Shown here: one piece after another, positions 3-26,685 of the stretch
Numbering within the stretch: position 1 is the stretch's first letter
Layout: every line of letters starts with the position of its first letter
Source of the DNA: Xanthomonas campestris pv. campestris str. ATCC 33913
GTDB lineage: Bacteria > Pseudomonadota > Gammaproteobacteria > Xanthomonadales > Xanthomonadaceae
Length of the DNA: 32,000 nucleotides
Direction: 5' to 3'
Assembly (NCBI RefSeq): GCF_000007145.1
Contig: NC_003902.1
Span: forward strand, 2,216,497-2,248,496
The notes under the pieces: generated by a model
What the model was told of the DNA's origin: nothing
The model's database searches: none
Seen by the model: the letters and a program-made list of their open reading frames with translations, nothing else
Program-made: the position numbers and the translations under genes

Positions 3-983
3 ATGCCCAGCGGCGCCCCGGCCGACACCTATTGCGGAACCGAAGGCTACTGGCGTTTGTCCGACAGCGTGCAACGCACCGAGTCGTTCGTCATCAGCGG
101 GCTGGACCGCAACTACACCGACGTGTTGCCGAGTTTCAACCTGGCCTACGACCTGACCGAGAACCTGCTGCTGCGCGCGGCAGCCGCGAAGGTGATCGCA
201 CGTCCCAGCTACAACGATATTGCCGCGCCTGGAAGCCTGGAGTTCTACAGCCCCGAGTACGTGGCCGACCGGCGCCTGACCGGCGGTGCTAGCGAGCAGG
301 GCTGGTACGGCTCGGGCAGCAACAAGAACCTGGAGCCGTACAAGGCCAACCAGTTCGACCTGGGGCTGGAATGGTATTTCCACCCGGGTTCGGTGGCCGG
401 TCTGGGACTGTTCCGCAAGAATGTGGAGAACTTCGCGGTCGACGTGATCAGCGACGTCAACATGATGGTCGACGGGCAACCGGTCACGGTGCAGAACTAC
501 AGCACCCAGGCCGGCGGCCAGGACGCGGTCTCGCAGGGTGTGGAGCTCTACGCGCAGCACACGCTGCCATTCGGTCTCGGGGTGCAGTTCAACTACACCT
601 ACAACGATGCCAGCAAGGCGGCGGTGCGGCTGGAGGACGGCACCGAGGCCGGCAAGACCTCCATGCCGGGCAGCGCCAGAAACCAGACCAACCTCACCGT
701 GTTCTACGAAGCCGACAGCCTGCTGCTGCGCGCCTCGTACAACCGTCGCGGCGAGCTGGTGCAAGGCCTGGTCAACGGGTTGAACGTCTTCGAGGAGCCG
801 TACTACCAGATCGATCTGAACGCGGCATACAACATCACCCCGGCACTCAGCCTCACCGCCTCGGTGCTGAACCTGACCAAGCAGGAGTCCCGCTCGGACC
901 TTGGCGACGACACCCGCGCCCGCTTCTATACCGGCGGATACGCAGGCCGGCTGGCGTACCTGGGGCTGACCTACAAGTTCTAG
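3..983 (+). CDS. TonB-dependent outer-membrane receptor, C-terminal part (5' end lies outside the window)
   Basis: The ORF is open to the window edge. It has a beta-barrel style alternating pattern rich in Y/N/G/T and ends ...AGRLAYLGLTYKF, the terminal aromatic residue typical of TonB-dependent receptor barrels. Confidence 0.8.
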   Translation: MPSGAPADTYCGTEGYWRLSDSVQRTESFVISGLDRNYTDVLPSFNLAYDLTENLLLRAAAAKVIARPSYNDIAAPGSLEFYSPEYVADRRLTGGASEQGWYGSGSNKNLEPYKANQFDLGLEWYFHPGSVAGLGLFRKNVENFAVDVISDVNMMVDGQPVTVQNYSTQAGGQDAVSQGVELYAQHTLPFGLGVQFNYTYNDASKAAVRLEDGTEAGKTSMPGSARNQTNLTVFYEADSLLLRASYNRRGELVQGLVNGLNVFEEPYYQIDLNAAYNITPALSLTASVLNLTKQESRSDLGDDTRARFYTGGYAGRLAYLGLTYKF

Positions 984-995
984 GCCCTGGTGGGT

Positions 996-1030
996 CGCGC
1001 CCATGCCTGCCACATGGCGGTATGGGCGCG
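996..1030 (+). terminator. Hairpin downstream of the receptor gene (possible terminator)
   Basis: CGCGCCCAT (996-1004) pairs with ATGGGCGCG (1022-1030) 13 nt after the stop codon. There is no clear T-tract, so the call is weak. Confidence 0.3.
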
Positions 1031-1086
1031 ATGGTTTGGCGACGGCCGGGTTGCAGTGGAAGTGAACCTGGAATCGTTATTTCTAC
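1028..1086 (-). repeat. R0: inverted copy of the first ~55 bp of the cassette-boundary repeat
   Basis: The reverse complement of 2845-2901 aligns with 1028-1084 at about 48 of 55 positions by hand alignment (TTTGGCGACGG..GTGGAA.TGAACCTGGAA.CGTTATTTC). Confidence 0.8.
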
Positions 1087-1227
1087 ACCCTAATGGATAC
1101 TTCCCTGGCCGCCTGGTGTGTATCCGCAACGGGGCGCGGGGTCACGACCGGGCGATAGGTGCGCGATCCGGCTAGGGTCGGCTTATCATCCACGTTTCAA
1201 GGTCGAACAGTACATACAGGGGAAAAC

Positions 1228-2034
1228 ATGAAAAGGATGTTCGCGATGGCCGCGCTTGTGGGGTGCGGCAGTCTGTCGGCAGCGCCGTTGCCGCTCACCA
1301 CTCCGTGCACATTGGAAGAGGGATCAACCCTCCCGATCAATTTTGCAGGTCACGACACGGTGGCGGTCTACAGCGCCTTGAAGTCGATACCGGCCAAGGA
1401 CGAGTTTGAGACTGCGGCGGATCACGCCTCACGTGTCAAAAGCGCTGTCGCTGCACTCCCAACGGCCATCGCCACGGGACAACTGTGCGCGGGAAGCATG
1501 GTGATCAACCCATTGTTTGACTCGTGGAAGTACAACGCAGAGAAACGCCAGTACGAGGGGACGGATCTGTACATCCAGATGCATCGTGTCAGTGGCTACT
1601 ACGCACCGATCTACGGCAAAGAGACGAAGCGCCGCGAAAGCTCGTACATGGGAACCAACGCCTATGGTGTGACCGCGCGCGTACCCAAGGTTGAGCGAAC
1701 CACATACCAGGTTGCACTGCCTCGCAACGCGCTCACCGATGCGGCGTCTGACGTTCCTGGCTTGAATGTGGGCAAAGAGACGATTGCGGCCATTCTTCCT
1801 ATGGAGCCTGACGATGCGCGCGCGCATAAAGGGCGCCTTACGGAAATCTACCAGTACGAAGTTGTTCCGCCCCTCATTTCGCAGGACACCGAGCGGGAAT
1901 ACCCGACCTTTGATCTGCCGACGCATTACGAGAACGAGCAGCACTTCATTGAAGGGCGCTTGATAAAAATTGCGGTGGTTGATGTCAAGACGGGCACCGT
2001 CCTTAAGGTGTACGAACTGGGCAACGATCAGTGA
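1228..2034 (+). CDS. Hypothetical lipoprotein (module 0, gene 1)
   Basis: ATG at 1228 is preceded by AGGGGA. The N-terminus MKRMFAMAALVGCGS has a signal peptide with the lipobox L-V-G-C. GC content is lower than in the flagellar genes. I recognise no family. Confidence 0.65.
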   Translation: MKRMFAMAALVGCGSLSAAPLPLTTPCTLEEGSTLPINFAGHDTVAVYSALKSIPAKDEFETAADHASRVKSAVAALPTAIATGQLCAGSMVINPLFDSWKYNAEKRQYEGTDLYIQMHRVSGYYAPIYGKETKRRESSYMGTNAYGVTARVPKVERTTYQVALPRNALTDAASDVPGLNVGKETIAAILPMEPDDARAHKGRLTEIYQYEVVPPLISQDTEREYPTFDLPTHYENEQHFIEGRLIKIAVVDVKTGTVLKVYELGNDQ

Positions 2035-2834
2035 CGTTCAAGCTCGTGGACGTGGAAGAGTTGATCGCACAGGCCAAGATGTCTGGCGTGAGCAAGATCA
2101 GCGTGGATGTCCCATTGCTTGCGTCCTACTCCCAAGAGGCGTGTATTTCGCAAACGCAGTGGATGGCCGGCCCTCACTTCAACAAGAACTACGCGTGGCT
2201 GCACGTGGACGCAGAGGGCGTGCCGTTTTACGCCGGGTATGGTCGCGGGGCGTTTGCGTGGCAGAAGAACGGTGGCGTAGCCTGGGAATGGTTTGTTCGT
2301 GAGCGGCTGGGCGGAGAGTACCGCGTGGTGGTGTTGGCCGTTGGCATGTCGGAGGCTCACGCCCAAAGCATTTTTGAACAGATGTTGGAGACCTACAACA
2401 AACGGCTGCTCAATCAATCAAGCTTCAACCGAGGCATGGACTACGCGGCGCTCAAGGAAGAGAACGATAAAAAAGACGCCATCCGACCGTATTACCCAAT
2501 CGTACGCAGCAAAAAGCCAGCTGCAATGATCTTCCAAGCCGCACTGACGGCCCAGAATATGCAGTACGCCCTCAACCCCTACCGGACCGAAACAGGCCGG
2601 TTTGGGGAGGTCTTGCGGGATATGGACGCATACCAGCCTATCAATACGTCGTTCATTACGTTCATTGTTGAGTGGCACATTGGACAGGACGACCTGGATG
2701 GAGCACGGGAGGCGTTGGCCGAGTTCAAGCGTCGTGCGCCCCGGCACAACGGCCACGATAGAATTACTCGGCTCGATAAGCTTGTTGAACATGGGCGTTT
2801 CTACCGTCGCCCAGGCTGGCTTGATATAACATAA
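2031..2834 (+). CDS. Hypothetical cytoplasmic protein (module 0, gene 2); weak GIY-YIG-like motif spacing
   Basis: The GTG start overlaps the upstream stop (GTGA at 2031-2034), which suggests translational coupling. There is no signal peptide. YAWLHVDAEGVPFYAGYG followed by SEAHAQSIFEQMLETYN gives GIY..YIG..E-x15-N-like spacing, but the match is weak. An alternative ATG lies at 2079. Confidence 0.55.
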   Translation: MTFKLVDVEELIAQAKMSGVSKISVDVPLLASYSQEACISQTQWMAGPHFNKNYAWLHVDAEGVPFYAGYGRGAFAWQKNGGVAWEWFVRERLGGEYRVVVLAVGMSEAHAQSIFEQMLETYNKRLLNQSSFNRGMDYAALKEENDKKDAIRPYYPIVRSKKPAAMIFQAALTAQNMQYALNPYRTETGRFGEVLRDMDAYQPINTSFITFIVEWHIGQDDLDGAREALAEFKRRAPRHNGHDRITRLDKLVEHGRFYRRPGWLDIT

Positions 2835-2844
2835 GAGCTGGGGG

Positions 2845-2967
2845 AAATAACGGTTCCAGGTTCAGTTCCACGGCAGCCTGACCGTCGCCAAACTATCGCG
2901 ACCGTGCCTGCGCGCGTAGCGGCATAGATCGGCAGCGATGTTGGTAGTGAAACGACAACGGCCGCAG
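2845..2967 (+). repeat. R1: cassette-boundary repeat, truncated inside its terminal hairpin
   Basis: Homologous to 7628-7741 and 10574-10696. It starts a few nt after the module 0 stop codon and ends at ..ACGACAACGGCCGCAG, where the module 1 left end (CGTGATGGGGTCAGG) begins. Confidence 0.85.
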
Positions 2968-3110
2968 AACCGTGATGGGGTCAGGTGCACTTATCAGGCG
3001 ACGGCGTTCGGCTTGCGTGGCCCTTATGTAACTGCGCCAGCGGCGCACACAGCCGCGCGAGACCCGCCAGCGTGTATTGACACGCCAGACCGTGTACTTG
3101 CAATCTAGTC

Positions 3111-3172
3111 CCAAGGAGCGTCGAAACTCCTCTAGTAGCGGTACCCACCTCCGTCAAACCGGTGGGTTTTTT
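3111..3172 (+). ncRNA. Candidate small RNA with its own promoter and intrinsic terminator
   Basis: TTGACA (3077-3082), a 16-nt spacer and TGCAAT (3099-3104) form a promoter-like motif. About 60 nt further on are a 5' hairpin AGGAG/CTCCT (3114-3131) and a terminator hairpin ACCCACC/GGTGGGT (3143-3167) running into a T6 tract (3167-3172). No ORF lies in this stretch. Confidence 0.4.
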
Positions 3173-3212
3173 GTGCCTGCATCCCGCAGGTACAAGCCGA
3201 CGCAATGCCTGT

Positions 3213-3287
3213 GTCGGGAGGGCGGCTAATACAACACCCGCAAGGGGAATATGCCCGCCGGCTACTAGCGGTTTCGAACCTCCCGAC
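3213..3287 (+). other. 75-nt structured element in the leader of the HTH/SymE-like operon
   Basis: A perfect 9-bp closing stem pairs GTCGGGAGG (3213-3221) with CCTCCCGAC (3279-3287). Inside it is a GGTT-TCGA-AACC hairpin. It does not fold as a tRNA cloverleaf. Confidence 0.3.
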
Positions 3288-3338
3288 ATCCCGTCGCCGT
3301 TGGCGGCGGTTCTTGGGTTGTTCCAGGAGGGCGTTGCC

Positions 3339-3608
3339 ATGTCTACCGCACCATCCATGCCGGCATCTGTGCCGGTTGATCTGTTGCCAGCTTCCGCTCA
3401 CCGCCTGCGGTGGGATGTTGGCGAGGTGCTGCGCCGGCTCGTCGCACGCGCAGCTGTTGAGCAGGCGAGCGACGATGCCGCGCATTCGCTGAGTCGCCAG
3501 CTCGGTGTATTGCCGCACACCTCGCGCCGCCGGTTCGCACGCAAGGCCGTGGCGTTGCAGCAGCATTTCGCCGCATCCATCATCCGCCATCACCCGGAGG
3601 CGCCATGA
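3339..3608 (+). CDS. Small (89 aa) HTH-like protein, putative regulator or antitoxin partner of the downstream SymE-like gene
   Basis: AGGAGG lies 8 nt upstream of the ATG at 3339. The stop overlaps the next start (ATGA at 3605-3608). AHSLSRQLGVLPHTSRRRFARK looks like a helix-turn-helix. Confidence 0.5.
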   Translation: MSTAPSMPASVPVDLLPASAHRLRWDVGEVLRRLVARAAVEQASDDAAHSLSRQLGVLPHTSRRRFARKAVALQQHFAASIIRHHPEAP

Positions 3609-4021
3609 CACGCCGCCGCCCACCCAAGGCATCTGCCAACGCACGGCCCACCCGCACGCGTACGCGCCCCGCGCCGCCCAAGCGGGTGCAGTGGGTCGTT
3701 GTGGAACCCGACCGCACCAAGCTGCCACCGATGCTACCACCCGACCCGGACGCCTCCTCGCAAGGCCCCGGCACGCTACGCGCACCCCGCCGCGCCCGCC
3801 GCCCGCGCCAATGCACCGTCAGCTACACCCATTACCCCGGCGCCCACGACCACGCCGGCGACCAGCACGTGCCCCACGTCCGTCTCAGCGGCCTATGGCT
3901 GGAACACTTGGGCTTTGCCATCGGCACCAAGCTGCGCATCACCGCCGGCGCGGGGCAGTTGTTGATGGAGGTGTTGCCGCTGGTGGAGGTGCCGGCCAAG
4001 GCGCGCAGCGTGCGGCGATGA
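3605..4021 (+). CDS. SymE-family (AbrB-fold, type I toxin-like) protein with a basic Pro/Arg-rich N-terminal region
   Basis: The C-terminal RQCTVSYTHYPG..HVPHVRLSGLWLEHLGFAIGTKLRITAGAGQLLMEVLP matches the E. coli SymE core as I recall it ([42 protein letters not shown]). Confidence 0.6.
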   Translation: MTRRRPPKASANARPTRTRTRPAPPKRVQWVVVEPDRTKLPPMLPPDPDASSQGPGTLRAPRRARRPRQCTVSYTHYPGAHDHAGDQHVPHVRLSGLWLEHLGFAIGTKLRITAGAGQLLMEVLPLVEVPAKARSVRR

Positions 4022-4107
4022 TGCTGCGGCTGCCAGACCCCTTGCGATTGACCTCGGTGCCGGATGCCACTAGCGTCGCAGCCACACCAGCGCACAACGG
4101 ACGCTTC

Positions 4108-4737
4108 ATGATCGCGCGCCCCCTCTACGCCTTGCTCGCCAGCCTCGCTCTGGGCGCATGCGCCCACACGGCGGCCACCCCAGCCTCGGCAACCGTCACG
4201 GAGACATCTGCCATGAGTTCCCCAGCCGATCACGTACCTGCAGATCCTTCCAAAGGTGGACCACGTACCGCGCAGGAAGCATTGGAGCGGGTACTGGAGC
4301 TGATTCGCACAAGCGCCAGTATTGAATCGTTCACTTCCGACCATGTGTCTCGAGCAATGGGCCAGTCGGCACAGCATCGCGATGATGGGTCCGGGCGGTT
4401 CGGTGCCAGCGGAGTGCTGACCCGAAACTGGAACTACGGGTTTGGTGTCAACAAAACCGAAGTAAAGGGTGCATGGTTCGAGTTCCTGTTCCTGCCTAAC
4501 CCGCCAGAAGCATCTCCCTCTATGTCGGATATCTGCCAGATCGACTTTGAGGCATTTGCGGCGCATCTCGAGAAAATGGGTTTTTCGCGACAGCGCAACC
4601 TTGTCGAGGATGGACGATGGATGAGCGATATTTTTCAACGCCCAGGGATGCGCGTAGAGCTCTTCCCGCGTGGCGAGGCTGACGAACCTTTAGCGCGCAC
4701 CACTCATCAGTGCGTCGAGTGGGTTCAAATTCGGTAG
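4108..4737 (+). CDS. Periplasmic lipoprotein, putative immunity protein (X-Tfi-like) for the downstream XVIPCD effector
   Basis: MIARPLYALLASLALGACAH carries a lipobox (L-G-A-C). It sits directly upstream of the effector-like gene, and a paralog lies at 8123-8740. A TTGACC-17-TAGCGT promoter-like motif at 4048-4076 is conserved upstream of the paralog. Confidence 0.6.
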   Translation: MIARPLYALLASLALGACAHTAATPASATVTETSAMSSPADHVPADPSKGGPRTAQEALERVLELIRTSASIESFTSDHVSRAMGQSAQHRDDGSGRFGASGVLTRNWNYGFGVNKTEVKGAWFEFLFLPNPPEASPSMSDICQIDFEAFAAHLEKMGFSRQRNLVEDGRWMSDIFQRPGMRVELFPRGEADEPLARTTHQCVEWVQIR

Positions 4738-4751
4738 TCCAAGGAGCGGAC

Positions 4752-6221
4752 ATGTTGAGCCAAGAAGCAAGTGCCGTGGTGGCGTCATTTGGTCAGCAAC
4801 CAGGTGTCACACGTGAGCATCTGGACAACTTCAACCGGGTCCTGAACGATTCGCCCGAGTTGACCCGCCAGATCAACGAGGCGGTGCAGAAAAAGGTGCT
4901 GAAAGGCTTCGCGCCGTTAAATGATCCGCATGCGGGAGGCACCTATGATCCACGCGATCAGGAAATTCACCTGCCGCTTGCAGCGCTGGTGAATGATGCC
5001 AACGGCAAGCATGCAGCAGCAGGCGATCTGACTTTCGTCTTGGGGCATGAAATTCAGCATAGCCTTTACAGTCCCACTGCTGCGCTTGCGCGGGAACAGT
5101 TCAAAACAGAGGCAATAAAAATTGCCCGTAGCACGCACGATTACACTGCTGCTGGCGAGAAGGTGCTGGCCAGTAACCGTGCGGACGAAGCAACGGCCGA
5201 AATAGCCGGATGGAACGCTATCGTGAGCGCGGCCAAGAGTCGTAATCCTAATCCTACGCTTGAAGATGTGTACCTGTTTGCGGATGGTCGGGCCAGAGAT
5301 TTCGTCACGCGCAGCGGTTATCCAAGCGTCTATACGCCCAAGGCAAACCTGACGTTCAATAGCGACCTGACGTTGTCGCCCACGGCGGCTAATGTCGAGG
5401 CAATGGGAGTGAATTACTTCGACAAATCGGTCAAGGACACCCGTATCGGTCATGCGGGCCAGTCCGACTGCGTCAACCATTACGGTCCGTGGGTGGTTGG
5501 CACAGCCGCCATCTACGAGCGACACTACAACAAGTCAAAGCCCGGCGAGCCGGAGCAGCCAATGATCCTGGACATGCAGCGCCTGGGATTCAAAGAAGAA
5601 ATTTTGGAGCACAACGGCGTTGACCTGGGCAGCGACACCCGTCCCATGCCATACCTGGACAGTAGTACACAGCCGCCAACCCCTGGGCTCTTCCAGCACA
5701 GCAAGGACACTCACCTGCACATCTCGCCGATTTCTGCCCAGGCGCTGGAGCAGGAGCTGCGAGAGCGCGATCCGCAATCGCCGGGGCCGTCGGCACAGCT
5801 TTTTCCGTCAGACCCCGGTCATGCGGATCACTCGCTCTACCAACAGATCAGGAATGGGGTGCAAAAGCTCGATGCCCAGCATGGCAGGGAGTGGGATGCA
5901 TCAAGCCAGCGCATGACTGCCAGCCTGCTTGCTCTGGCAAAAGAGGAAGGGTTGTCGCGGGTGGATCATGTGGTGCTCAACAACCCAACGGCTCAGCTGG
6001 CGGGCGGCGAGAAGGTCTTCGTCGTTCAGGGCGCCCTCAACGACCCGGCTCACCAGCGTGCCCATATGTCGACCATGGACGCCGTGCAGACACCAGAGAC
6101 CCAGTCGTTCGATCGTCTGCAGGCAATCAACCAAACCCAGGCCCAAGCGCGCGAACAGCAGCAGGCGCTGGAGCAGTCCCAGCAAGCCGTCAGCCAGGCT
6201 GGTCCGTCGGTGACGCGCTGA
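4752..6221 (+). CDS. Putative T4SS antibacterial effector (X-Tfe-like): N-terminal HExxH zincin-like domain plus C-terminal XVIPCD and Gln-rich tail
   Basis: AAGGAG lies upstream of the ATG at 4752. The metallopeptidase motif is LTFVLGHEIQHSLY. The C-terminus DPGHADHSLYQQ..LDAQHGREWD..LAKEEGLSRVDHVVL..VFVVQGALNDPAHQRAHM.. plus a Q-rich tail has the conserved blocks of the XVIPCD. Confidence 0.7.
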   Translation: MLSQEASAVVASFGQQPGVTREHLDNFNRVLNDSPELTRQINEAVQKKVLKGFAPLNDPHAGGTYDPRDQEIHLPLAALVNDANGKHAAAGDLTFVLGHEIQHSLYSPTAALAREQFKTEAIKIARSTHDYTAAGEKVLASNRADEATAEIAGWNAIVSAAKSRNPNPTLEDVYLFADGRARDFVTRSGYPSVYTPKANLTFNSDLTLSPTAANVEAMGVNYFDKSVKDTRIGHAGQSDCVNHYGPWVVGTAAIYERHYNKSKPGEPEQPMILDMQRLGFKEEILEHNGVDLGSDTRPMPYLDSSTQPPTPGLFQHSKDTHLHISPISAQALEQELRERDPQSPGPSAQLFPSDPGHADHSLYQQIRNGVQKLDAQHGREWDASSQRMTASLLALAKEEGLSRVDHVVLNNPTAQLAGGEKVFVVQGALNDPAHQRAHMSTMDAVQTPETQSFDRLQAINQTQAQAREQQQALEQSQQAVSQAGPSVTR

Positions 6222-6278
6222 GTGTTTCGCAACGAGATAACGGGGTCAAAATAACGGTTCAAATAACGGTTCCAGGTT

Positions 6279-7627
6279 CTGAGGTTTCCCCACATTTCCT
6301 CCTGGCAAATCAATCACTTGCGACGTAATTGCCTGGAAGAAAGTGCGCGCATGGCGCAATCTTCAAGGTGACTAAGCCAGAGAAGGTTGACGACCATGCG
6401 CGCCAGCGAAGTATTGCAGAAGTGCCTGCCCAACTCACTGTCCGGGATGCATGCGTTGCGCGAACGCGCGTTGCTGCATGCGGTCGAGGCGTTGTTGCAC
6501 GGACGCAGGCTGACACTGATGGACATCGCACGTTCGTGGCCGAGCGCACTGCGGGTGCGCGCGCCGCTCAAGGCAGTTGATCGCCTGTTGAGTAATCGCA
6601 ATTTGCAGGTCGAGCGATCAGTGATCGACCACGAGATGGCGCACTGGCTGCTGCGCGGCGCGCAGCCGGTAATCGTCATCGACTGGAGCGATCTGAAGCC
6701 AGACAAATCGTGGTGTCTGCTGCGCGCAGCGGTGCCGGTGGGCGGCCGCACGCTTACCTTGCTGGACATGGTAGTGCCAGGAAAGCAGCAGGGATCGCCT
6801 GGTGCAGAAAGACGCTTCTTGCAACAACTGAGGGCACTGGTTCCGGACGATGTTCGCCCGATCCTGGTCACTGACGCCGGCTTCCGGACACCGTGGTTCC
6901 GCGCTGTATCGGCCATGGGCTGGTGTTGGGTTGGGCGACTGCGCGGGCGCACGCAAGTCAAGCCGCAGGACGTGCGGGATGAAGCAGATCAGTGGATCGA
7001 CAGCCGGAAACTGCATGTGTTGGCGTCCAATCGTGCATGCGAGTTACCGCCGATGCAGGCCAATCGCAGCGATCCACTCGATTGCAGGTTGGTGATTTAC
7101 GCCAAGGCACGGCAAGGGCGCAAACAGTGCAATCGCCGCTCACCCGCCAAAGTCTCGCGTGCGTCATCGAGTCTGAAGGCCGCAGCGCGCGAGCGCGAGC
7201 CTTGGCTCATCGTTGCATCCCCGCAGCTGCAGGCGCCCAGCGCAAAGCAGTTGGTCAATGTGTACGCACGACGGATGCAGATCGAGCTTGCATTTCGCGA
7301 TCTGAAATCACATCGCTACGGCCAGGCGCTGGAAGACAGTTTGACCCGACGCGGCGAGCGACTGCAGATCCTGCTGCTGATCAATACGTTGGCTGCATTC
7401 GCCAGCTGGTTGGCGGGGCTGGGATGCGAAGCGACCGGTATCGCCCAGTGGCTGTCTCCTCGCAACAGCACACGCAAGCTTTACTCCACGCTACGCATCG
7501 GCCGAGAAGCGCTGGTCAGGCAGTGGCCGATGGAACCCGTCTCACGGTGGATAGGGCGCTTGCGCGCACTGCCTGCGGCAGTGCGCGAGCAGATGACGCT
7601 TACGGTGTAAAACGTGGGGATACCTTA
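6279..7627 (+). mobile_element. IS10-like insertion sequence (IS4 family), apparently intact
   Basis: The terminal inverted repeats are CTGAGGTTTCCCCAC (6279-) and the reverse complement CTAAGGTATCCCCAC (-7627), matching at 13 of 15 positions. A 9-bp direct target duplication TTCCAGGTT lies at 6270-6278 and 7628-7636. The element is 1349 bp long and interrupts boundary repeat R2. Confidence 0.9.
6396..7610 (+). CDS. IS4-family (IS10-like) DDE transposase
   Basis: Several blocks resemble the IS10 transposase as I recall it: LTLMDIARSWP, VDRLLSNRNL, PVIVIDWSDL, ILVTDAGFRTPWF, GWCWVGRLRG. QLVNVYARRMQIELAFRDLK contains the Y-2-R-3-E-6-K signature. Confidence 0.9.
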   Translation: MRASEVLQKCLPNSLSGMHALRERALLHAVEALLHGRRLTLMDIARSWPSALRVRAPLKAVDRLLSNRNLQVERSVIDHEMAHWLLRGAQPVIVIDWSDLKPDKSWCLLRAAVPVGGRTLTLLDMVVPGKQQGSPGAERRFLQQLRALVPDDVRPILVTDAGFRTPWFRAVSAMGWCWVGRLRGRTQVKPQDVRDEADQWIDSRKLHVLASNRACELPPMQANRSDPLDCRLVIYAKARQGRKQCNRRSPAKVSRASSSLKAAAREREPWLIVASPQLQAPSAKQLVNVYARRMQIELAFRDLKSHRYGQALEDSLTRRGERLQILLLINTLAAFASWLAGLGCEATGIAQWLSPRNSTRKLYSTLRIGREALVRQWPMEPVSRWIGRLRALPAAVREQMTLTV

Positions 7628-7726
7628 GTTCCAGGTTCAGTTCCACGGCAGCCTGACCGTCGCCAAACTATCGCGCCCGTGCCTGCGCGCTTGGCGACAT
7701 AGATCGACAGCGATGCTAGTACTGAA

Positions 7727-7759
7727 ACGACAACGGCCGCAGTACGCGGCCGTTGTCGT
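7727..7759. terminator. Perfect 14-bp hairpin (copy of the cheA-distal hairpin)
   Basis: ACGACAACGGCCGC, loop AGTAC, GCGGCCGTTGTCGT. The sequence is identical to the hairpin at 10681-10713. Confidence 0.5.
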
Positions 7760-7787
7760 CAGATCAGGCAGCCAGGATCGTCTTGAC

Positions 7788-7822
7788 GATTCCCGATTCC
7801 CGATTCCCGATTCCCGATTCCC
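7788..7822. repeat. Heptamer microsatellite (GATTCCC)x5
   Basis: Five perfect tandem heptamers lie directly next to the stop codon of the cheA 3' fragment. Confidence 0.95.
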
Positions 7823-7827
7823 GAAAA

Positions 7828-7950
7828 TCAATGATCGCTGGAGCGCAATCCGTCCGCATCCAGAATCAGCGCCATCCGGCCGTCGCCGATTAAGGTGGCG
7901 CCGGCGTAGCCGGGTAGGCCGCGCAGGGCGTGGGGTAGTGGTTTGATCAC
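7828..7950 (-). pseudogene. cheA: Displaced 3' fragment of cheA (last 40 codons plus stop)
   Basis: The reverse strand translates to VIKPLPHALRGLPGYAGATLIGDGRMALILDADGLRSSDH*, which matches the C-terminus of the intact cheA (10781-) at 38 of 40 residues. There is no upstream coding continuation, because the sequence switches to the module 2 left end at 7951. Confidence 0.85.
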
Positions 7951-7984
7951 GGAGCGTGATGGGGTCAGGTGCAATTATCAGGCG

Positions 7985-8033
7985 GGTGTTGGCGCAGGTG
8001 GATGTGCCGGCCAAGGCGCGCAGCGTGCGGTGA
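7985..8033 (+). pseudogene. Remnant of the SymE-like gene 3' end (deletion variant of module 1)
   Basis: 7985-8033 aligns with 3970-4021, the last codons of the SymE-like ORF. The ~970 bp corresponding to 3001-3969 is absent here. Confidence 0.6.
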
Positions 8034-8122
8034 TGATGCTGCGGCTGCCAGATGCCCTGCGATTGACCTCAGTGCCGCATGCCACTAGCGTCGCAGCCAC
8101 ACCAGCGCATAACGGACGCTTC

Positions 8123-8740
8123 ATGATCGCGCGCCCCCTCTACGCCTTGCTCGCCACCCTGGCTCTGGGAGCTTGCGCCCACGCGGCGGGCGGCGCAGCT
8201 CCGGCAACCGTCAAGGAGACATCCGCCTTGAGTTCATCCAGCCCTGCCACTGTGCCGCCTGACAAGCCCACTGCGGAGGGTTTGCTTGGCCAGCTGCTTG
8301 CGTTGATCAAAGGCAGCCAGACCATTTCCGACTTCACTCCCGAGCGTCTGAAGTCGGCAATGGGGCAGGTCGTTCAATTCGTAAAAGATGATGAACCCCT
8401 ATACCGTGCTTTTGGCCGGCTCACCAAAGAGTGGAGCTACGGCTTTGGTGTTGATGAAACCAAACTCGATGGACGCTGGTTTGAATTCCGTTTTGATCGC
8501 AATGTGGCCGGTGCATCGCCTTCAATGACCGAGATCTGTCGTCTGGACTTCGACCGCTTCACCCAGCAGCTTGAGTTAATGGGATTTGCGCGCGAGCGCA
8601 ACATCGTCGAGGACGGCCGCTGGATGAGTGATTTCTACACGCGCCCGGGGATGCGTGTAGAGGTTTTCCCAAGAGGTGAAGCTGCGGAACCGCAAGAGTT
8701 GGTGGCGCACAAATGCGTCGAATGGGTCTACATCCGATAA
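8123..8740 (+). CDS. Lipoprotein paralog of 4108-4737, an immunity-like gene with no adjacent cognate HExxH effector
   Basis: MIARPLYALLATLALGACAH carries a lipobox. The C-terminal block NIVEDGRWMSDFYTRPGMRVEVFPRGEA..KCVEWVYIR parallels NLVEDGRWMSDIFQRPGMRVELFPRGEA..QCVEWVQIR. Confidence 0.65.
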   Translation: MIARPLYALLATLALGACAHAAGGAAPATVKETSALSSSSPATVPPDKPTAEGLLGQLLALIKGSQTISDFTPERLKSAMGQVVQFVKDDEPLYRAFGRLTKEWSYGFGVDETKLDGRWFEFRFDRNVAGASPSMTEICRLDFDRFTQQLELMGFARERNIVEDGRWMSDFYTRPGMRVEVFPRGEAAEPQELVAHKCVEWVYIR

Positions 8741-8901
8741 GCTGAGGTAGCGGACATATCACTCAGCCCTGGAGTTGTCAGGCCTCATAAAGCAATGCGT
8801 GCATAGGGCATTGGGGGTGGTTGAGAGGCGTGCATGACACGATGACATTGAAAAACTGTCAAAATTCCCCCTGCAGCACCAACACTTATTGGAGAAAGGC
8901 C

Positions 8902-9543
8902 GTGCCCCTTGCAAACGATCCAATGCGCTTTGCACTCACGGCATTGATTACCTGCCTGATCGCTGGCTGCAGCCTGCAACCGCCGCCTGAAAACGTGCCT
9001 ATCGCAAAGGAGCAGATAGAGATGAGAACGGTCGTCCCGTTGGTACGGAGTTTGACCCCACATGATCGTGGGCCTACAGAGCTGGAATTCGATGTGCCCG
9101 CACTGCCCGACGACGCGACTCCTCCCGTTTTCATCGGTGTGCGGATCACCGGTGTCGATCCAACTGCCGTCTCCCAAAGTGCTGACAGGCTGATTAGCGC
9201 TGGTGTTTCGGCCGAGCTCCACTTGGAGCGTATTGAACCATCCGGTCCGGTCTCCGTGGAATTGCAGCGTAGTCAGCGTGTGGGGGTAGGTCAGCAGGCG
9301 TCCATTCCCTTGTCAGCTGATGGTATGGCTCCTGGTCTGTTCGCTTTTGATGCGGACGGTACGACGCTGCAAGACGCCGGTTTGTCTACTGAACAGACCG
9401 CGTCCAGGGAGTTGGCGTTCGGCTATAGCAATGCTGTCAAGCCAGGCCGTTATCGGCTCAAACTGCGCTTTGATCAGAACGCCGAGGCGCTGGTTGCGGC
9501 TAATGCGCAACTTCTTGTCGCTTACACCTACAAAGGAAAGTAA
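8902..9543 (+). CDS. Lipoprotein, putative immunity protein for the downstream XVIPCD effector
   Basis: GGAG lies 7 nt upstream of the GTG at 8902, and an alternative ATG is at 8923. ..MRFALTALITCLIAGCS carries a lipobox (I-A-G-C). The gene ends 5 nt before the effector-like ORF. Confidence 0.6.
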   Translation: MPLANDPMRFALTALITCLIAGCSLQPPPENVPIAKEQIEMRTVVPLVRSLTPHDRGPTELEFDVPALPDDATPPVFIGVRITGVDPTAVSQSADRLISAGVSAELHLERIEPSGPVSVELQRSQRVGVGQQASIPLSADGMAPGLFAFDADGTTLQDAGLSTEQTASRELAFGYSNAVKPGRYRLKLRFDQNAEALVAANAQLLVAYTYKGK

Positions 9544-9548
9544 GGGGA

Positions 9549-10550
9549 ATGAGCATGGATGATCATGAAAAGCGCTATGCAGTCACTGTCTACGTCGCTG
9601 CCGCAGGTACGCCGTTGATGGCCGGAGGCACATCCTTCGGTGGCCATATGTATTACTCGATTGACGACGGAGCGACTGTCAAAAGTTATGGGTTTTCGCC
9701 TATCAAACATGGCGAGGCTAGCGGGCCAGGGAAAGTTTCTTTCAATGACGTCGACACCTATCAAAAGCCGTATTACTCACGCACGATGGAGATCGATAAG
9801 GCGCAGTATGACAAGCTGGAAGCCTTCGGCGTAGCCCCTGCAAAGCATGGGTTCAATATGGAATATCACGGTGCTAAGAATAGTTGTATCGACTTCACGT
9901 GGGATGCGCTCAACCACGCTGGACTGCACCGGAAGACAAAAGACGGAATCGATAAAGGCTTCGAGGGGGATATCAGGCCCGTAGAAAACGTAGATGATAT
10001 CAAGAGCATTTCTGCTCCTTTGCCTAAAAGTGAGTTGAATAAGGAGCACATCAATCCGAAGCCCAAGCAGGAACTTTGGCAGAAGGTGATTGGTGAGGCG
10101 CAGCCGCCCGGTGAGCAGGTATCTCCACTACAGGAAGCAACACAGCTCGCGAGAGTGCTGCCAACAGATCCGCTGCATCACCAAGCAGAAGAGGCCGTTC
10201 GCCGCCTTGAGCAAGGTCTCGGCCGCGAGTACGACGACAACGGTGCACGGCTGGCAGCAAGCAGCGCGTATTTAGCCAAAGAGAACGGGCTGTCGCGAAT
10301 CGATCATGTCGTGCTGAGCGAGTACACCAAGTCCGTGCGGCAGGGCGAGAACGTCTTCGTTGTGGAAGGTGCGTTGAACGATCCCGCTCACAAGATGGCG
10401 CATATGATGACGAGTGATGCGATTGCGCAGCCCGTCGAGCAATCCTTGGCGCAATTACAGGCCTTGGGCGAAACTCAGCGCCAACAGCAATCCCAGCAGC
10501 AGGAGCAACAGCGAGAGCAGTCGATTGCGCCTCAACACCGGATGGTGTGA
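9549..10550 (+). CDS. Putative T4SS antibacterial effector (X-Tfe-like): N-terminal His...Cys domain plus C-terminal XVIPCD and Gln-rich tail
   Basis: The C-terminus LGREYDDNGARLAASSAYLAKENGLSRIDHVVLSE..VFVVEGALNDPAHKMAHM..PVEQSL..QQQSQQQEQQ parallels the C-terminus of 4752-6221. N-terminal GGHMYYSIDDG ... HGAKNSCIDFTW suggests a permuted papain-like (LRAT/NlpC-type) hydrolase, which is inference only. An alternative start at 9555 has better RBS spacing. Confidence 0.7.
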   Translation: MSMDDHEKRYAVTVYVAAAGTPLMAGGTSFGGHMYYSIDDGATVKSYGFSPIKHGEASGPGKVSFNDVDTYQKPYYSRTMEIDKAQYDKLEAFGVAPAKHGFNMEYHGAKNSCIDFTWDALNHAGLHRKTKDGIDKGFEGDIRPVENVDDIKSISAPLPKSELNKEHINPKPKQELWQKVIGEAQPPGEQVSPLQEATQLARVLPTDPLHHQAEEAVRRLEQGLGREYDDNGARLAASSAYLAKENGLSRIDHVVLSEYTKSVRQGENVFVVEGALNDPAHKMAHMMTSDAIAQPVEQSLAQLQALGETQRQQQSQQQEQQREQSIAPQHRMV

Positions 10551-10680
10551 GAGCTAGTGAAGTAACGGTTCTGAAATAACGGTTCCAGATTCAGTTCCAC
10601 GGCAGCCTGGCCGTCGCCAAACCATCGCGCCCATGCCTGCGCGCATGGCGGCGTAGATCGGCAGCGATGCTGGTAGTGAA

Positions 10681-10713
10681 ACGACAACGGCCGCAGTACG
10701 CGGCCGTTGTCGT
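10681..10713. terminator. Perfect 14-bp hairpin between convergent cheA and the effector gene (putative bidirectional terminator)
   Basis: ACGACAACGGCCGC-AGTAC-GCGGCCGTTGTCGT. The U-tracts are weak on both strands. Confidence 0.5.
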
Positions 10714-10741
10714 TAGATCAGGCAACCAGGATCGTCTTGCC

Positions 10742-10776
10742 GAATCCCGAATCCCAATCCCCAATCCCCAATCCCC
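10742..10776. repeat. Heptamer microsatellite (GAATCCC)x2 (AATCCCC)x3
   Basis: Five tandem heptamers end 4 nt from the cheA stop codon. They are G-rich on the cheA sense strand. Confidence 0.95.
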
Positions 10777-10780
10777 AAAA

Positions 10781-12436
10781 TCAATGATCGCTGGAACGCA
10801 GCCCATCCACGTCCAGGATCAGCGCCATGCGGCCATCGCCGATCAGGGTGGCGCCGGCGTAGCCGGGCAGGCCGCGCAGGGCGCGGGGCAGGGGCTTGAT
10901 CACCACTTCCTCGCGGCCGCGGACCTGGTCCACCACCAGGCCGAAGCGGGTTTCGCCGGCCTGCAGCAGCACCACGGTCAGCAGCGGCGGTTGTTCGGCG
11001 GGCACGCCCAGCCAGCGGCGCAGGTCGATCAGCGGCAAGGTGTGCGAACGACGATCGAGCACGGCGCGGCCGTCGAACCAGCCGAGCGAGGACTGCGGGG
11101 CATGCAGCACCTCAACCACGCGGGCGAGCGGCAGGGCATAGACCGCTTCGCCGGCCTGCACCAGCAAGGTGGGCAGGATCGCCAGGGTCAGCGGCACGCG
11201 AATCATGAAGCGGCTGCCGCGGCCCAGTTCGGACTGGATCTGGATCTGCCCGCTGAGCTCGCGGATACGCGATTGCACCACGTCCATGCCGACGCCGCGG
11301 CCGGAGATGTCGGTCACCTCGGCCTTGGTCGAGAAGCCGGGCATGAAGATCAGATGCAGGCACTCGTCGGTGCTCAGGCGCGCGGCGGCTTCTGCATCGA
11401 TCAGGCCCTTGTTGCGGGCGATTTCGCGCAGGCGCTCGGGGTCGATGCCGGCACCGTCGTCCTGGATTTCGATACTGACGTAGTCGCCTTCCTGCTGCGC
11501 GGACAGGCGCACGTGGCCACTACGCGGCTTGCCGGTGGCTTCGCGCAATGCCGGTGATTCGATGCCGTGGTCGATCGCATTGCGCACCAGGTGCACCAGC
11601 GGGTCGGCCAGGGCTTCGACCAGGTTGCGATCCAGCTCGGTCTCCGCGCCAATCAGCTCCAGTTCCACTTCCTTGGATAGCGTGCGCGCCACATCGCGGG
11701 CCACCTTGGGAAAGCGCGAGAACACCTTGCTCACCGGTTGCATGCGGGTGCGCATGACCGCGGTCTGCAAGCGGGCGGTGGCGATGTCGAGCGTGCTCAC
11801 CGCGCGGTCGAGTTCTTCGTCGCGTAAGCGGGTGCGCAAGGTCTTGAGCCGGTTGCGCGAGAGCACCAGTTCGCCGATCAGGTTGACGATGGCGTCCAGG
11901 CGCTTGGTATCCACGCGCACCGTCTGTTCGGCTTCGGCGCCACCGCTCTTGGCTGCGGCCTTCGGCGTGGCCTTGGCACCGGCGGCGGCCGGTGCCTGGC
12001 CGGCGGGCACCGCGGCGAGCGCAGCAGCCTTGGGCGCGGATTTCACCGCCGGCGGGCCGCTCTTGGCATCGAACTGCGCGATCAGCGACGCCGGTGCATG
12101 CGGCACCGGGTCACCCGAGCCCATCGCATCGAGCATGGCCTGCAGATAATCCAGCGACTGCTGCGCGGCATCGAAGTGATGCGCCTGCAGCACCGCCTGG
12201 CCGGAGCGCGCCATGCCGAGGGTTTCTTCGGCGGCGTGGCACAGCTCCACCATGGGCTTGATCGCCAGAAAGCCGGCGCCGCCCTTGAGCGTGTGGAAGC
12301 CGCGGAACACCGCGTTGAGCTGGTCGGCTTCGTCTGGCGCCTGTTCCAGCGACACCAGCTGTTCGCCGAGGCGATCCAGGATTTCCTGGGCCTCGACGAT
12401 GAAATCGGCAGCAATATCGTCTGGAACAGCACTCAT
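10781..12436 (-). CDS. cheA: Chemotaxis histidine kinase CheA (short form with no obvious P2 domain)
   Basis: HPt motif FRGFHTLKGGAGF, an Ala/Pro-rich linker, a dimerisation segment VRVDTKRLDAIVNLIGELV, kinase boxes HLVRNAIDHGIE, DDGAGID and GRGVGMDVV, and a CheW-like C-terminus. Confidence 0.95.
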   Translation of the reverse strand: MSAVPDDIAADFIVEAQEILDRLGEQLVSLEQAPDEADQLNAVFRGFHTLKGGAGFLAIKPMVELCHAAEETLGMARSGQAVLQAHHFDAAQQSLDYLQAMLDAMGSGDPVPHAPASLIAQFDAKSGPPAVKSAPKAAALAAVPAGQAPAAAGAKATPKAAAKSGGAEAEQTVRVDTKRLDAIVNLIGELVLSRNRLKTLRTRLRDEELDRAVSTLDIATARLQTAVMRTRMQPVSKVFSRFPKVARDVARTLSKEVELELIGAETELDRNLVEALADPLVHLVRNAIDHGIESPALREATGKPRSGHVRLSAQQEGDYVSIEIQDDGAGIDPERLREIARNKGLIDAEAAARLSTDECLHLIFMPGFSTKAEVTDISGRGVGMDVVQSRIRELSGQIQIQSELGRGSRFMIRVPLTLAILPTLLVQAGEAVYALPLARVVEVLHAPQSSLGWFDGRAVLDRRSHTLPLIDLRRWLGVPAEQPPLLTVVLLQAGETRFGLVVDQVRGREEVVIKPLPRALRGLPGYAGATLIGDGRMALILDVDGLRSSDH

Positions 12437-26591: not shown

Positions 26592-26685
26592 GGCCGGTGC
26601 ATCATGCGCCGTACCTCACGGGTGCCATGGACGGCCGGTCGTGCAAGCCGCGTTACCACGCTAACGGCTGCAGTGACGGCTTTCT

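Follow-up and report, generated by a model that had tools for sequence, protein, structure and literature searches.

The 32,000-nucleotide window analysed here, from Xanthomonas campestris pv. campestris str. ATCC 33913 (contig NC_003902.1, positions 2,216,497 to 2,248,496 of the forward strand), holds a tandem array of cargo modules between a TonB-dependent receptor gene and the chemotaxis gene cheA. The best explanation of this array is that the locus is a genus-wide accretion island of Xanthomonas, situated in the flagellar/chemotaxis gene cluster at the place where cheA and motA once adjoined. A slot beside the receptor gene, between inverted 65-nt repeats, would hold one variable and often anti-phage cargo; it would be followed by one or more modules of type IV secretion system (T4SS) effector and immunity genes, each led by a unit of the small RNA (sRNA) sRNA-Xcc1 and SymE; and every module would end in the segment that lies downstream of cheA, namely a 25-nt core, 40 nt, a hairpin and sometimes the end of cheA itself. 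We put the chances at somewhat better than even that the modules are stacked by additive, homology-anchored recombination, with ordinary homologous recombination and insertion sequence (IS) events reshuffling them.

Organisation of the locus

The interval between the 3' end of the receptor gene (plus strand) and cheA (minus strand) holds the whole array, whose flanks and boundaries are as follows.

3..983, plus strand: 3' part of the TonB-dependent receptor gene, the left flank (PF00593, 1.7e-35; TIGR01782, 1.6e-90)
996..1030, strand not assigned: GC-rich hairpin after the receptor gene, CGCGCCCATGCC-loop-GGTATGGGCGCG, read from the sequence
1019..1083, minus strand: R0, the boundary repeat in inverted orientation (I1-I3 in the repeat search, with 85-89% complementarity over 55-65 nt)
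2845..2970, plus strand: R1, made up of the core (2845-2868), R65 and the left arm of the hairpin, ending in the loop
2971..3000, plus strand: first copy of the left end (Lend), with a sharp left edge, (GA)CCGTGATGGGG; 29/30 identical to 7955-7984
6237..6278, plus strand: first part of R2, with one degenerate and two exact AAATAACGGTTC units and the core as far as the IS target
7629..7950, plus strand: second part of R2, with the remaining core and R65, a hairpin (7726-7759), five copies of CGATTCC (7787-7824) and the cheA fragment cheA' (7828-7950)
7955..7984, plus strand: second copy of Lend, joined directly to a symE 3' remnant (7985 to ~8035)
10558..10780, plus strand: R3, with a 14-nt unit present twice, the core (10574-10597), R65, a hairpin (10681-10714) and five copies of AATCCCC (10743-10778)
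10781..12436, minus strand: cheA, the right flank (Hpt, H-kinase_dim, HATPase_c and CheW domains)

An earlier note on this DNA, made from the sequence alone, had described cargo modules that all end in the same boundary repeat, and the repeats do lie where it placed them (R1 at 2845-2970, R2 at 6261-6278 and 7629-7950, split by an IS, and R3 at 10574-10903). A repeat search of the window recovers them as a 199-nt family at 2853, 7628 and 10582 (64-89% identity), together with a 151-nt pair at 7800 and 10753 (85%). They begin 10, 27-39 and 9-23 nt past the stop codons at 2834, 6221 and 10550, respectively, and the tandem units at the junctions are likewise present, as two exact copies of AAATAACGGTTC at 6249-6272 with a degenerate one from 6237, and as a 14-nt unit repeated twice at 10558-10585. 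Probes of 40 nt (at most 3 mismatches) and 19 nt drawn from the repeat gave three and four matches in the window against none expected from shuffled sequence (100 shuffles for the 40-nt probe), and neither probe found further copies in the 32 kb. A fourth copy, absent from the earlier note, is inverted, covers the first 65 nt of the repeat and stands directly after the receptor gene at 1019-1083; its core (1059-1083) has 2 mismatches, and the AAAT end of this core faces the cargo.

Alignment identifies the boundary repeat as the DNA downstream of the live cheA gene, represented by R3, in the order core, ~40 conserved nt, hairpin with a 14-bp stem, heptamers and cheA end. R2 is a second copy of this cheA-downstream segment that reaches 123 nt into cheA, and R1 is a copy that ends in the hairpin loop. 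The core, of 25-27 nt, reads AAATAACGGTTCCAGGTTCACTTC, with the consensus form AAATAACGGTTCCAGGTTCA(G/C)TTC. The displaced fragment cheA', whose counterpart is the last 123 nt of live cheA, comprises the last 40 codons and the stop and is 87% identical to the live gene.

The 30-bp Lend shared by 2971 and 7955, identical at 29 of 30 positions, was also described correctly, as was its attachment to different points of the preceding repeat: at the first copy R1 stops in the hairpin loop, and at the second R2 extends 123 nt into the 3' fragment of cheA. Beyond these 30 bp the similarity resumes as a 251-nt repeat (3970-4220 and 7985-8235, 90% identity), so that 3001-3969 occurs in block 2 only; the unit of sRNA, p89 and symE has been deleted at the second Lend copy, and block 3 retains only the 3' remnant of symE. 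Across species the Lend edge abuts, at the same nucleotide, more than 12 unrelated sequences, and the length of repeat that precedes the next module differs among arrays (24, 67, 126, ~170 or 323 nt). The description of the cargo as lower in GC does not hold uniformly for block 2, where 3450-4200 has 69-74% GC.

Two readings of these sequences were discarded. A structured RNA or attC-like fold of the core was rejected, as significant structure comes from the hairpins only and Rfam gives no match at the core: the boundary repeat alone (R1) folds no better than shuffles (z = +0.71), and the fold of 984-1095 (z = -3.5) is dominated by the receptor-side hairpin at 996-1030. Lend matches the core by eye at 14/21 positions, a score that 2/5000 shuffles reach; Lend as a diverged core was rejected all the same, with unrelated 31-mers of the window scoring equally or higher and a profile built from 56 core sites detecting 0/21 Lend sites.

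Some smaller features of the repeats may be recorded here. The heptamers after the cheA stop codon (CGATTCC and AATCCCC, ~5 copies, at 7787-7824 and 10743-10778) vary in copy number between strains, and they occur in both orientations within the cheA-motA spacer of X. sacchari (L072, 8750-9170), a genome that lacks the island. Two diverged core-like sequences stand head to head in small palindromes at L015 (6590-6674) and L019 (~7830-7900), one of which is joined to a cheA fragment starting at gene position 1427. Lend, with ~100 nt of upstream DNA that it has in common with X. cannabis, is also found on a mobilizable X. perforans plasmid, CP077787 (L045, 5001-5051), where it lacks the sRNA/SymE unit and adjoins an IS3-family element; the second locus in this comparison is L014 (5900-6010).

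Variation among strains and species

The proposal of a recombination hotspot with variable module number and cargo was borne out, both among strains with identical CheA and across ~25 Xanthomonas species. Among strains whose CheA is 100% identical, the IS is missing from some, and others have one more immunity gene or another immunity allele; L003 carries serine-hydrolase and AKR/TetR modules at the same interval, L010 has nothing there but an IS, and L009 (CP155931) is identical to the window, IS included. In ~25 species the same flanks enclose different cargo, and the A-type and B-type effector modules, which stand side by side in the window, in other species occupy the cheA-proximal position as alternative alleles. 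Slot 1, between R0 and R1, likewise holds cargo that differs per species and is always transcribed towards R1, including elsewhere a DRT type 8 (Drt8) reverse transcriptase with its nuclease partner (1.9e-131 and 1e-60), a PD-T4-6-like kinase, a Fic protein and a Lamassu LmuB-like ATPase.

An exact scan for a 23-nt core in 185,579 species genomes (one per species; diverged copies would be missed by such a scan) returned 34 regions, from ~25 Xanthomonas species and three outgroup genomes, with 1-5 per genome, and every Xanthomonas match falls in the cheA-receptor interval. The boundary sequences are therefore not dispersed repetitive extragenic palindromic (REP) elements, the outcome that the earlier note had named as fatal to its reading: REPs number tens to hundreds of scattered intergenic copies, near-exact copies here are few per genome, and those of Xanthomonas all lie at one locus. 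A plasmid or phage origin of the repeat was rejected as well, with no real match among 72,556 plasmids and no exact core in viral contigs.

The early-branching X. sacchari gives an indication of the state before the island. There motA-motB-parA-cheW come straight after cheA, the REPs present are ordinary ones and both core and R65 are lacking, and in Pseudoxanthomonas a glycosyltransferase cluster occupies the corresponding position after cheA. These arrangements imply that the island, including the receptor gene, is an insertion into a former cheA|motA junction.

Strains of the 8004 type (L001, which is strain 8004, L004 and L006, ~1100-3750) have another arrangement. Their receptor gene is not beside the array, the SymE unit is broken by an IS5-like element, there is one more immunity paralogue, and Lend adjoins another variant of the repeat, one that has the receptor-side hairpin. 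This combination suggests a larger rearrangement, of which one breakpoint falls inside the island.

Displaced cheA fragments and recombination tracts

Displaced cheA fragments start at five positions of the gene (945, 1257, 1332, 1427 and 1534), and the cheA-side breakpoints are thus not site-specific. We compared such fragments with the live gene of the resident genome and counted differences at codon positions 1/2/3. The 123-nt cheA' of the window gave 2/2/12, three fragments of L015 gave 2/1/12 (400 nt), 3/0/15 (228 nt) and 2/3/10 (123 nt), and the fragment of L033, set against its own species' gene, gave 1/0/10. Each tested fragment aligns to the live gene in a single ungapped block, and that of the window translates with an intact frame. 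Third-position bias and the absence of gaps identify the fragments as the ends of once-functional alleles that evolved under selection in other lineages; a copy left to decay in place would change evenly over the codon positions, and the excess at third positions argues against this.

The same test largely refutes an origin by simple tandem duplication in place followed by divergence, without horizontal input, to which we give very little credence. The architecture of unit, junction and unit is what duplication would produce, and blocks 2 and 3 have paralogous immunity genes (61% identity). However, the cheA stubs differ mainly at synonymous sites and keep their frame, unlike the products of neutral decay, the toxin domains of the effectors are unrelated, and the two module types are alternative cheA-proximal alleles in other species.

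Long homologous tracts reaching into cheA carry modules between lineages, as can be seen from three observations. Downstream segments group partly by the cargo that they follow and not by host species. The cheA gene of L003, beside replaced cargo, has 98.1% DNA identity, against 100% in other strains. And in X. arboricola pv. populi (L026, 7125-8000) the C-terminal half of CheA is 99.7% identical to that of X. campestris, against ~95% in other X. arboricola; pv. populi also shares the B-type effector module, and the two similarities together indicate an interspecies recombination tract.

How the array may have grown

Under the homology-anchored history that we favour, a foreign haplotype consisting of a module, its downstream segment and the 3' part of cheA would pair homologously inside cheA on one side, and its other end would be attached by an illegitimate joint inside the resident cheA end or a little past it. 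After such one-sided joining the module already present, with its downstream segment and a stub of cheA, would stay in place upstream instead of being replaced, and the array would grow beside cheA, so that the newest module is probably the one that adjoins cheA. Repeated segments and flanking genes would later offer homology for allele swaps between strains and species, and IS insertion and IS-IS recombination would disrupt and delete modules. The sharp edges of core and Lend would be the ends of the homology shared between haplotypes, at which non-homologous tails are trimmed. We infer from these patterns that no dedicated enzyme was required: as the earlier note had reported, no integrase is present, the transposase of an IS4-family element being the sole recombinase-type domain among the window genes that were Pfam-scanned or pre-annotated, and no recombinase other than IS transposases was found in these genes or in annotated neighbouring loci.

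Several observations weigh against this history. Illegitimate joints are expected at random donor positions; here 3/5 of the long cheA fragments and many other junctions meet exactly the core or a core-like AAAT end, the Lend edge is equally sharp in its more than 12 contexts, and at least eight unrelated slot-1 cargos meet the inward-facing cores on either side at exactly the same nucleotide. Contigs of Rhodanobacteraceae and Lysobacteraceae contain an identical 25-nt core, at the 3' ends of Rhs toxin/immunity cassettes that have nothing else in common with the island. In these metagenome-assembled genomes and metagenomic contigs the core lies 2-40 nt after the last gene of the Rhs module, in which RHS repeats and a Tox-REase-7 domain were confirmed, and is followed by a different spacer and hairpin. 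Inverted cores with their AAAT ends inward also form brackets at two other unrelated loci, L030 and L052. Neither this cross-family spread nor the inverted duplication is accounted for by homology edges alone, and a recent stacking event was not seen among the sampled X. campestris strains. The cross-family core, the inverted brackets, the fixed AAAT end, the tandem restarts and the tie of the core to its docking locus leave some room for three other explanations.

One of these takes the core as the site of an enzyme encoded elsewhere, which would cut at the AAAT edge, join incoming DNA, load cargo precisely and stack cassettes, in the manner of an integron-like or dif-module-like cassette system for conflict genes; we regard it as possible, though rather improbable. 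The nucleotide-exact boundaries of the slot-1 cargos on both sides are what such an enzyme would produce, and so is the AAAT end as a fixed junction partner, met by cheA positions 945 and 1257, a truncated immunity gene, two points downstream of symE and the L003 deletion. Partial tandem copies of the core (1-3) restart at AAAT without exception, and at Rhs cassette ends the core agrees at 25/25 positions between families. Three loci have inverted brackets and L051 has a direct pair of cores, and by eye the core has partial dyad symmetry (8/13 around CCAGG). No core accompanies the homologues of the slot-1 gene that lie on a plasmid and in other islands, hence the core belongs to the docking locus and not to the slot-1 cargo. 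Against such an enzyme, no candidate is encoded in or near any of the loci, the partner junctions fall at variable positions with no single crossover point, and gain or loss of a single cassette at the core was not seen among closely related strains. Moreover, downstream segments co-vary with cargo, which implies crossovers past the core, the foreign-allele signature of the cheA stubs is not expected from insertion at the core, and the fold of the core is not above chance. A tentative and more specific form of the idea is that Lysobacterales may encode, elsewhere in the genome, a recombination or nicking activity for which the core AAATAACGGTTCCAGGTTCACTTC is the recognition site. If so, this activity would load and stack secreted toxins with their immunity genes, Rhs cassettes and anti-phage systems with nucleotide precision, and the cross-family core would define a new cassette-capture system, a functional analogue of the integron with a different site and enzyme.

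It is unlikely, in our view, that the cores are the terminal inverted repeats of non-autonomous cargo transposons (mobile insertion cassettes) served by a transposase encoded elsewhere. Inverted core pairs do surround cargo in the window (1059-1083 and 2845-2868), twice in L003, and in L030 and L052; one L003 module lies between 7-bp direct repeats, CACGAAA (by eye), and the small core-core palindromes of L015 and L019 would fit as well. Nevertheless, there is no consistent target-site duplication, and none by eye at the window bracket, L030 or L052, the Xanthomonas copies all lie at one locus, outgroup Rhs loci have single cores, and the ends lack the usual pattern of TG...CA plus duplication. 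No autonomous, transposase-bearing copy occurs among 55 core regions, in a comparison that would miss diverged ends.

We are similarly doubtful that the core is a functional cis element of operon 3' ends, such as a signal associated with the RNA 3' untranslated region or terminator or a regulator binding site, which travels with cassettes because it is useful and is used as homology only incidentally. In almost all instances the core does begin 2-40 nt past the stop codon of a final gene that shares its orientation, a hairpin follows it in Xanthomonas and the outgroups alike, and in L034 the stop codon is inside the core. The receptor-side inverted copies, however, have no preceding co-oriented gene, the core shows no conserved pairing (R1 alone, z = +0.7) and no Rfam match, and junctions of the AAAT end with internal cheA positions find no explanation in such an element.

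Six further candidates were set aside: a tRNA or tmRNA as insertion target, neither gene type being present in the window; one-ended transposition of the IS91/ISCR type, since the variable ends lack GTTC/CTTG (by eye); a dif/Xer site, the arms matching at ~5/11 positions (by eye); a sigma-54 or FliA promoter in the reverse-complemented core, which has GG-N10-TC rather than GG-N10-GC and a poor FliA -10 (by eye); a retro-copy origin of the truncated units by reverse transcription, for which the fixed end is on the wrong side given the known transcripts; and inside-out transposition of whole circles into slot 1, there being no duplication at the cargo ends.

Insertion sequences and secondary deletion

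The element that splits R2 belongs to the IS4 family.

6279..7628, plus strand: IS4-family insertion sequence, with its transposase at 6387-7610 (NF033591, 358 bits; cut-off 152)

Its ends, CTGAGGTTTCCCCAC and CTAAGGTATCCCCAC, are terminal inverted repeats, and it is flanked by a 9-bp target duplication, TTCCAGGTT, at 6270-6278 and 7629-7637. The DDE transposase, the terminal inverted repeats and the duplication length (9-12 bp expected) all agree with the family.

This IS or one closely related to it has hit the same 9 bp of the core at least four independent times, inserted either way round and into different core copies (the window; L003, ~8459-9806; L010, 8462-9808; L042, ~7911, reverse strand), from which it seems that the element targets TTCCAGGTT in the core. 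In L010, also X. campestris, the whole array is lost and a single IS stands between cheA and the receptor gene (8360-9830). It could be taken for an ancestral empty site; we rejected this, as the flanks of the IS, AACCTGGAA and TTCCAGATT, are inverted copies rather than a duplication, namely the receptor-side and cheA-side halves of two different target sites. This mismatch identifies L010 as a secondary deletion and fits IS-IS recombination as its cause.

Cargo genes

The toxin/immunity cargo announced by the earlier note was found in blocks 2 and 3, which encode effectors with the XVIPCD domain next to lipoproteins; block 1 has no family match. The cargo features are these.

1084..2844, plus strand: slot-1 cargo (block 1), with a lipoprotein gene (1228-2034) and a gene for a 267-aa protein (2031-2834)
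3150..3172, plus strand: intrinsic terminator of a short upstream transcript-like stretch (terminator scan, T6 tail)
3213..3295, plus strand: RNA of the sRNA-Xcc1 family (Rfam RF02221, 78.8 bits, gathering 53, E = 2e-13, full model length)
3339..3608, plus strand: p89, an 89-aa open reading frame (ORF) upstream of symE, kept with symE in at least 15 loci; no Pfam family
3605..4021, plus strand: SymE-like toxin gene, with the SymE_toxin domain of the type I toxin SymE (PF08845, 6.1e-15, 55.5 bits, cut-off 29)
4108..4737, plus strand: lipoprotein, putative immunity protein (X-Tfi) A; lipobox LALGAC, 61% identical to 8123-8740
4710..6221, plus strand: X-T4SS effector (X-Tfe) A, with C-terminal XVIPCD (PF20410, 1.1e-33)
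8123..8740, plus strand: lipoprotein, putative immunity protein (X-Tfi) B; paralogue of 4108-4737 (61%, E = 2e-85)
8923..9543, plus strand: second lipoprotein of module 3; lipobox LIAGC, found beside the B-type effector in other species too
9549..10550, plus strand: X-T4SS effector (X-Tfe) B, with XVIPCD (PF20410, 7.7e-26)

Both effectors exceed the 24.9-bit cut-off of PF20410, the family of the XVIPCD, which is the C-terminal secretion domain of effectors that the bactericidal T4SS of Xanthomonadales delivers, and their N-terminal toxin parts are unrelated. The lipoproteins upstream of effectors A and B are likely their immunity proteins, judging by position, X-Tfe/X-Tfi pairing and lipobox; such pairing, and a lipoprotein-box motif for periplasmic localization in the X-Tfi XAC2610, have been described (PMC10933484). 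The VirB/VirD4 genes of the X-T4SS are not within the window. Effector A (503 aa) has an HExxH motif, LGHEIQH, in its N-terminal toxin part (residues ~110-116; 4990-5010), a part without Pfam match, and the motif suggests a metallopeptidase-type toxin.

The trio of sRNA-Xcc1, 89-aa ORF and SymE is conserved at the 5' ends of effector modules in at least 15 Xanthomonas loci. Plasmids of Klebsiella, E. coli, Pantoea and others have matches to the sRNA portion by itself, and SymE genes adjoin the sRNA on a plasmid of X. citri, which suggests that sRNA-Xcc1 belongs to a SymE addiction unit.

Neither block 1 protein has a Pfam or PADLOC match. Homologues of the 267-aa protein come from three settings (loci L081, 3079-3879; L077/L078, 5001-5795; L075, 5001-6622): one has CBASS-like (SMODS/SLATT) and HEPN genes and a phage integrase as neighbours, another is a conjugative plasmid of X. 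translucens, where a ParE toxin and a resolvase lie to either side, and in a Stenotrophomonas-like island the homologue is accompanied by a lipoprotein-like partner. Going by these neighbourhoods, the two-gene slot-1 cargo of the window may be an undescribed defence or anti-plasmid system.

Comparison with known systems

The earlier note had likened the array to an integron or to orphan modules, and neither analogy survived. An attC site, 55-140 nt long, is imperfectly palindromic, carries complementary R'' (RYYYAAC) and R' (GTTRRRY) boxes and folds single-stranded, and a CALIN, or cluster of attC sites lacking an integron integrase, contains at least two such sites. The array does resemble integrons and CALINs in that accessory modules each end in the same short sequence, growth is apparently at one end (that of cheA) and, like CALINs, it is without an integrase. 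It differs from them in that the tyrosine integrase IntI is absent from the genes and neighbouring loci surveyed above and attC features are lacking: AAATAAC in the repeat fits RYYYAAC at 5/7 positions, no complementary GTTATTT-type box lies downstream, the repeat alone folds no better than chance, and the cassette boundaries have no fixed crossover point, the junctions falling at variable points of the repeat. The modules here are also multi-gene and bring their own regulatory RNA. An IntegronFinder survey of Xanthomonas placed CALINs beside lamG/secF and other loci, not cheA (bioRxiv 10.1101/2025.06.18.660453). What the earlier note proposed is partly supported: the locus is a hotspot that stacks toxin/immunity cargo, and it is not an integron.

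Similar in layout are complex class 1 integrons with ISCR1, in which cargo also lies between full and truncated copies of the same downstream segment; the model for these is homologous rescue of an intermediate that carries part of the 3' conserved segment. Here, in contrast, an ISCR/IS91 transposase is absent, the variable ends lack GTTC/CTTG (by eye), and what is duplicated takes in the end of a housekeeping gene that came from another lineage. Orphan arrays of Rhs and contact-dependent inhibition (CDI) systems share with the island the tandem polymorphic toxin/immunity modules that vary between strains, and the same core stands at the 3' ends of outgroup Rhs modules. An Rhs/CDI orphan retains part of the conserved delivery domain, through which it can recombine with the main gene, whereas in the island both effectors are full-length with their own, C-terminal XVIPCD and unrelated N-terminal domains, and the homology that is reused is non-coding DNA plus a cheA stub.

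The island also resembles defence-island hotspots without mobility genes, where a fixed core-gene position holds different defence systems per genome and no integrase, as exemplified by the integration hotspots of the E. coli pan-genome (PMC10121019). It differs from these in its nucleotide-exact boundaries at a short inverted repeat, in stacking interbacterial toxins too and in its duplicated flank segments. Homology-facilitated illegitimate recombination, which relies on a one-sided homologous anchor, comes from transformation studies in Acinetobacter and pneumococcus and has the same pattern of a homologous crossover on one side and an illegitimate joint with variable breakpoints on the other. 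We do not know of any description of it as the recurrent builder of ordered arrays at one locus, and the donor-side joints here differ in being concentrated at the edge of the shared segment. The Xer-dependent pdif modules of Acinetobacter plasmids are likewise recombinase-free modules (toxin-antitoxin or resistance in pdif) between inverted short sites, but the core of the island is not dif-like, with 11-nt arms at ~5/11 against E. coli dif (by eye), the array is chromosomal, and its sites do not alternate regularly. An integrative element in a gene 3' end fits no better, as there is no integrase and the cheA stubs vary in length, and, measured against inverted-repeat transposons, terminal inverted repeats are present (window, L003, L030, L052) and a constant target-site duplication is not. 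In the literature searched, the sequences of core and Lend led to no relevant paper, the single match to a Lend substring being in an unrelated plant-virus small interfering RNA paper.

The history of this integration hotspot can be read from stacked housekeeping-gene stubs, each cheA stub marking one acquisition from another lineage. A plant pathogen can in this way collect bacteria-killing effectors and phage-defence systems at one address with no visible mobility gene, and the exact boundaries make the DNA between cores a practical trap for new effectors, immunity proteins and defence systems in Xanthomonas and its relatives.

Outside the array, the window also contains a cyclic di-GMP signalling cluster (23631-29676). 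It has adjacent paralogous genes for Reg_prop/Y_Y_Y/GGDEF sensor diguanylate cyclases (987 and 996 aa), and this pair stands next to an MHYT-GGDEF-EAL gene, beside flagellar export genes.

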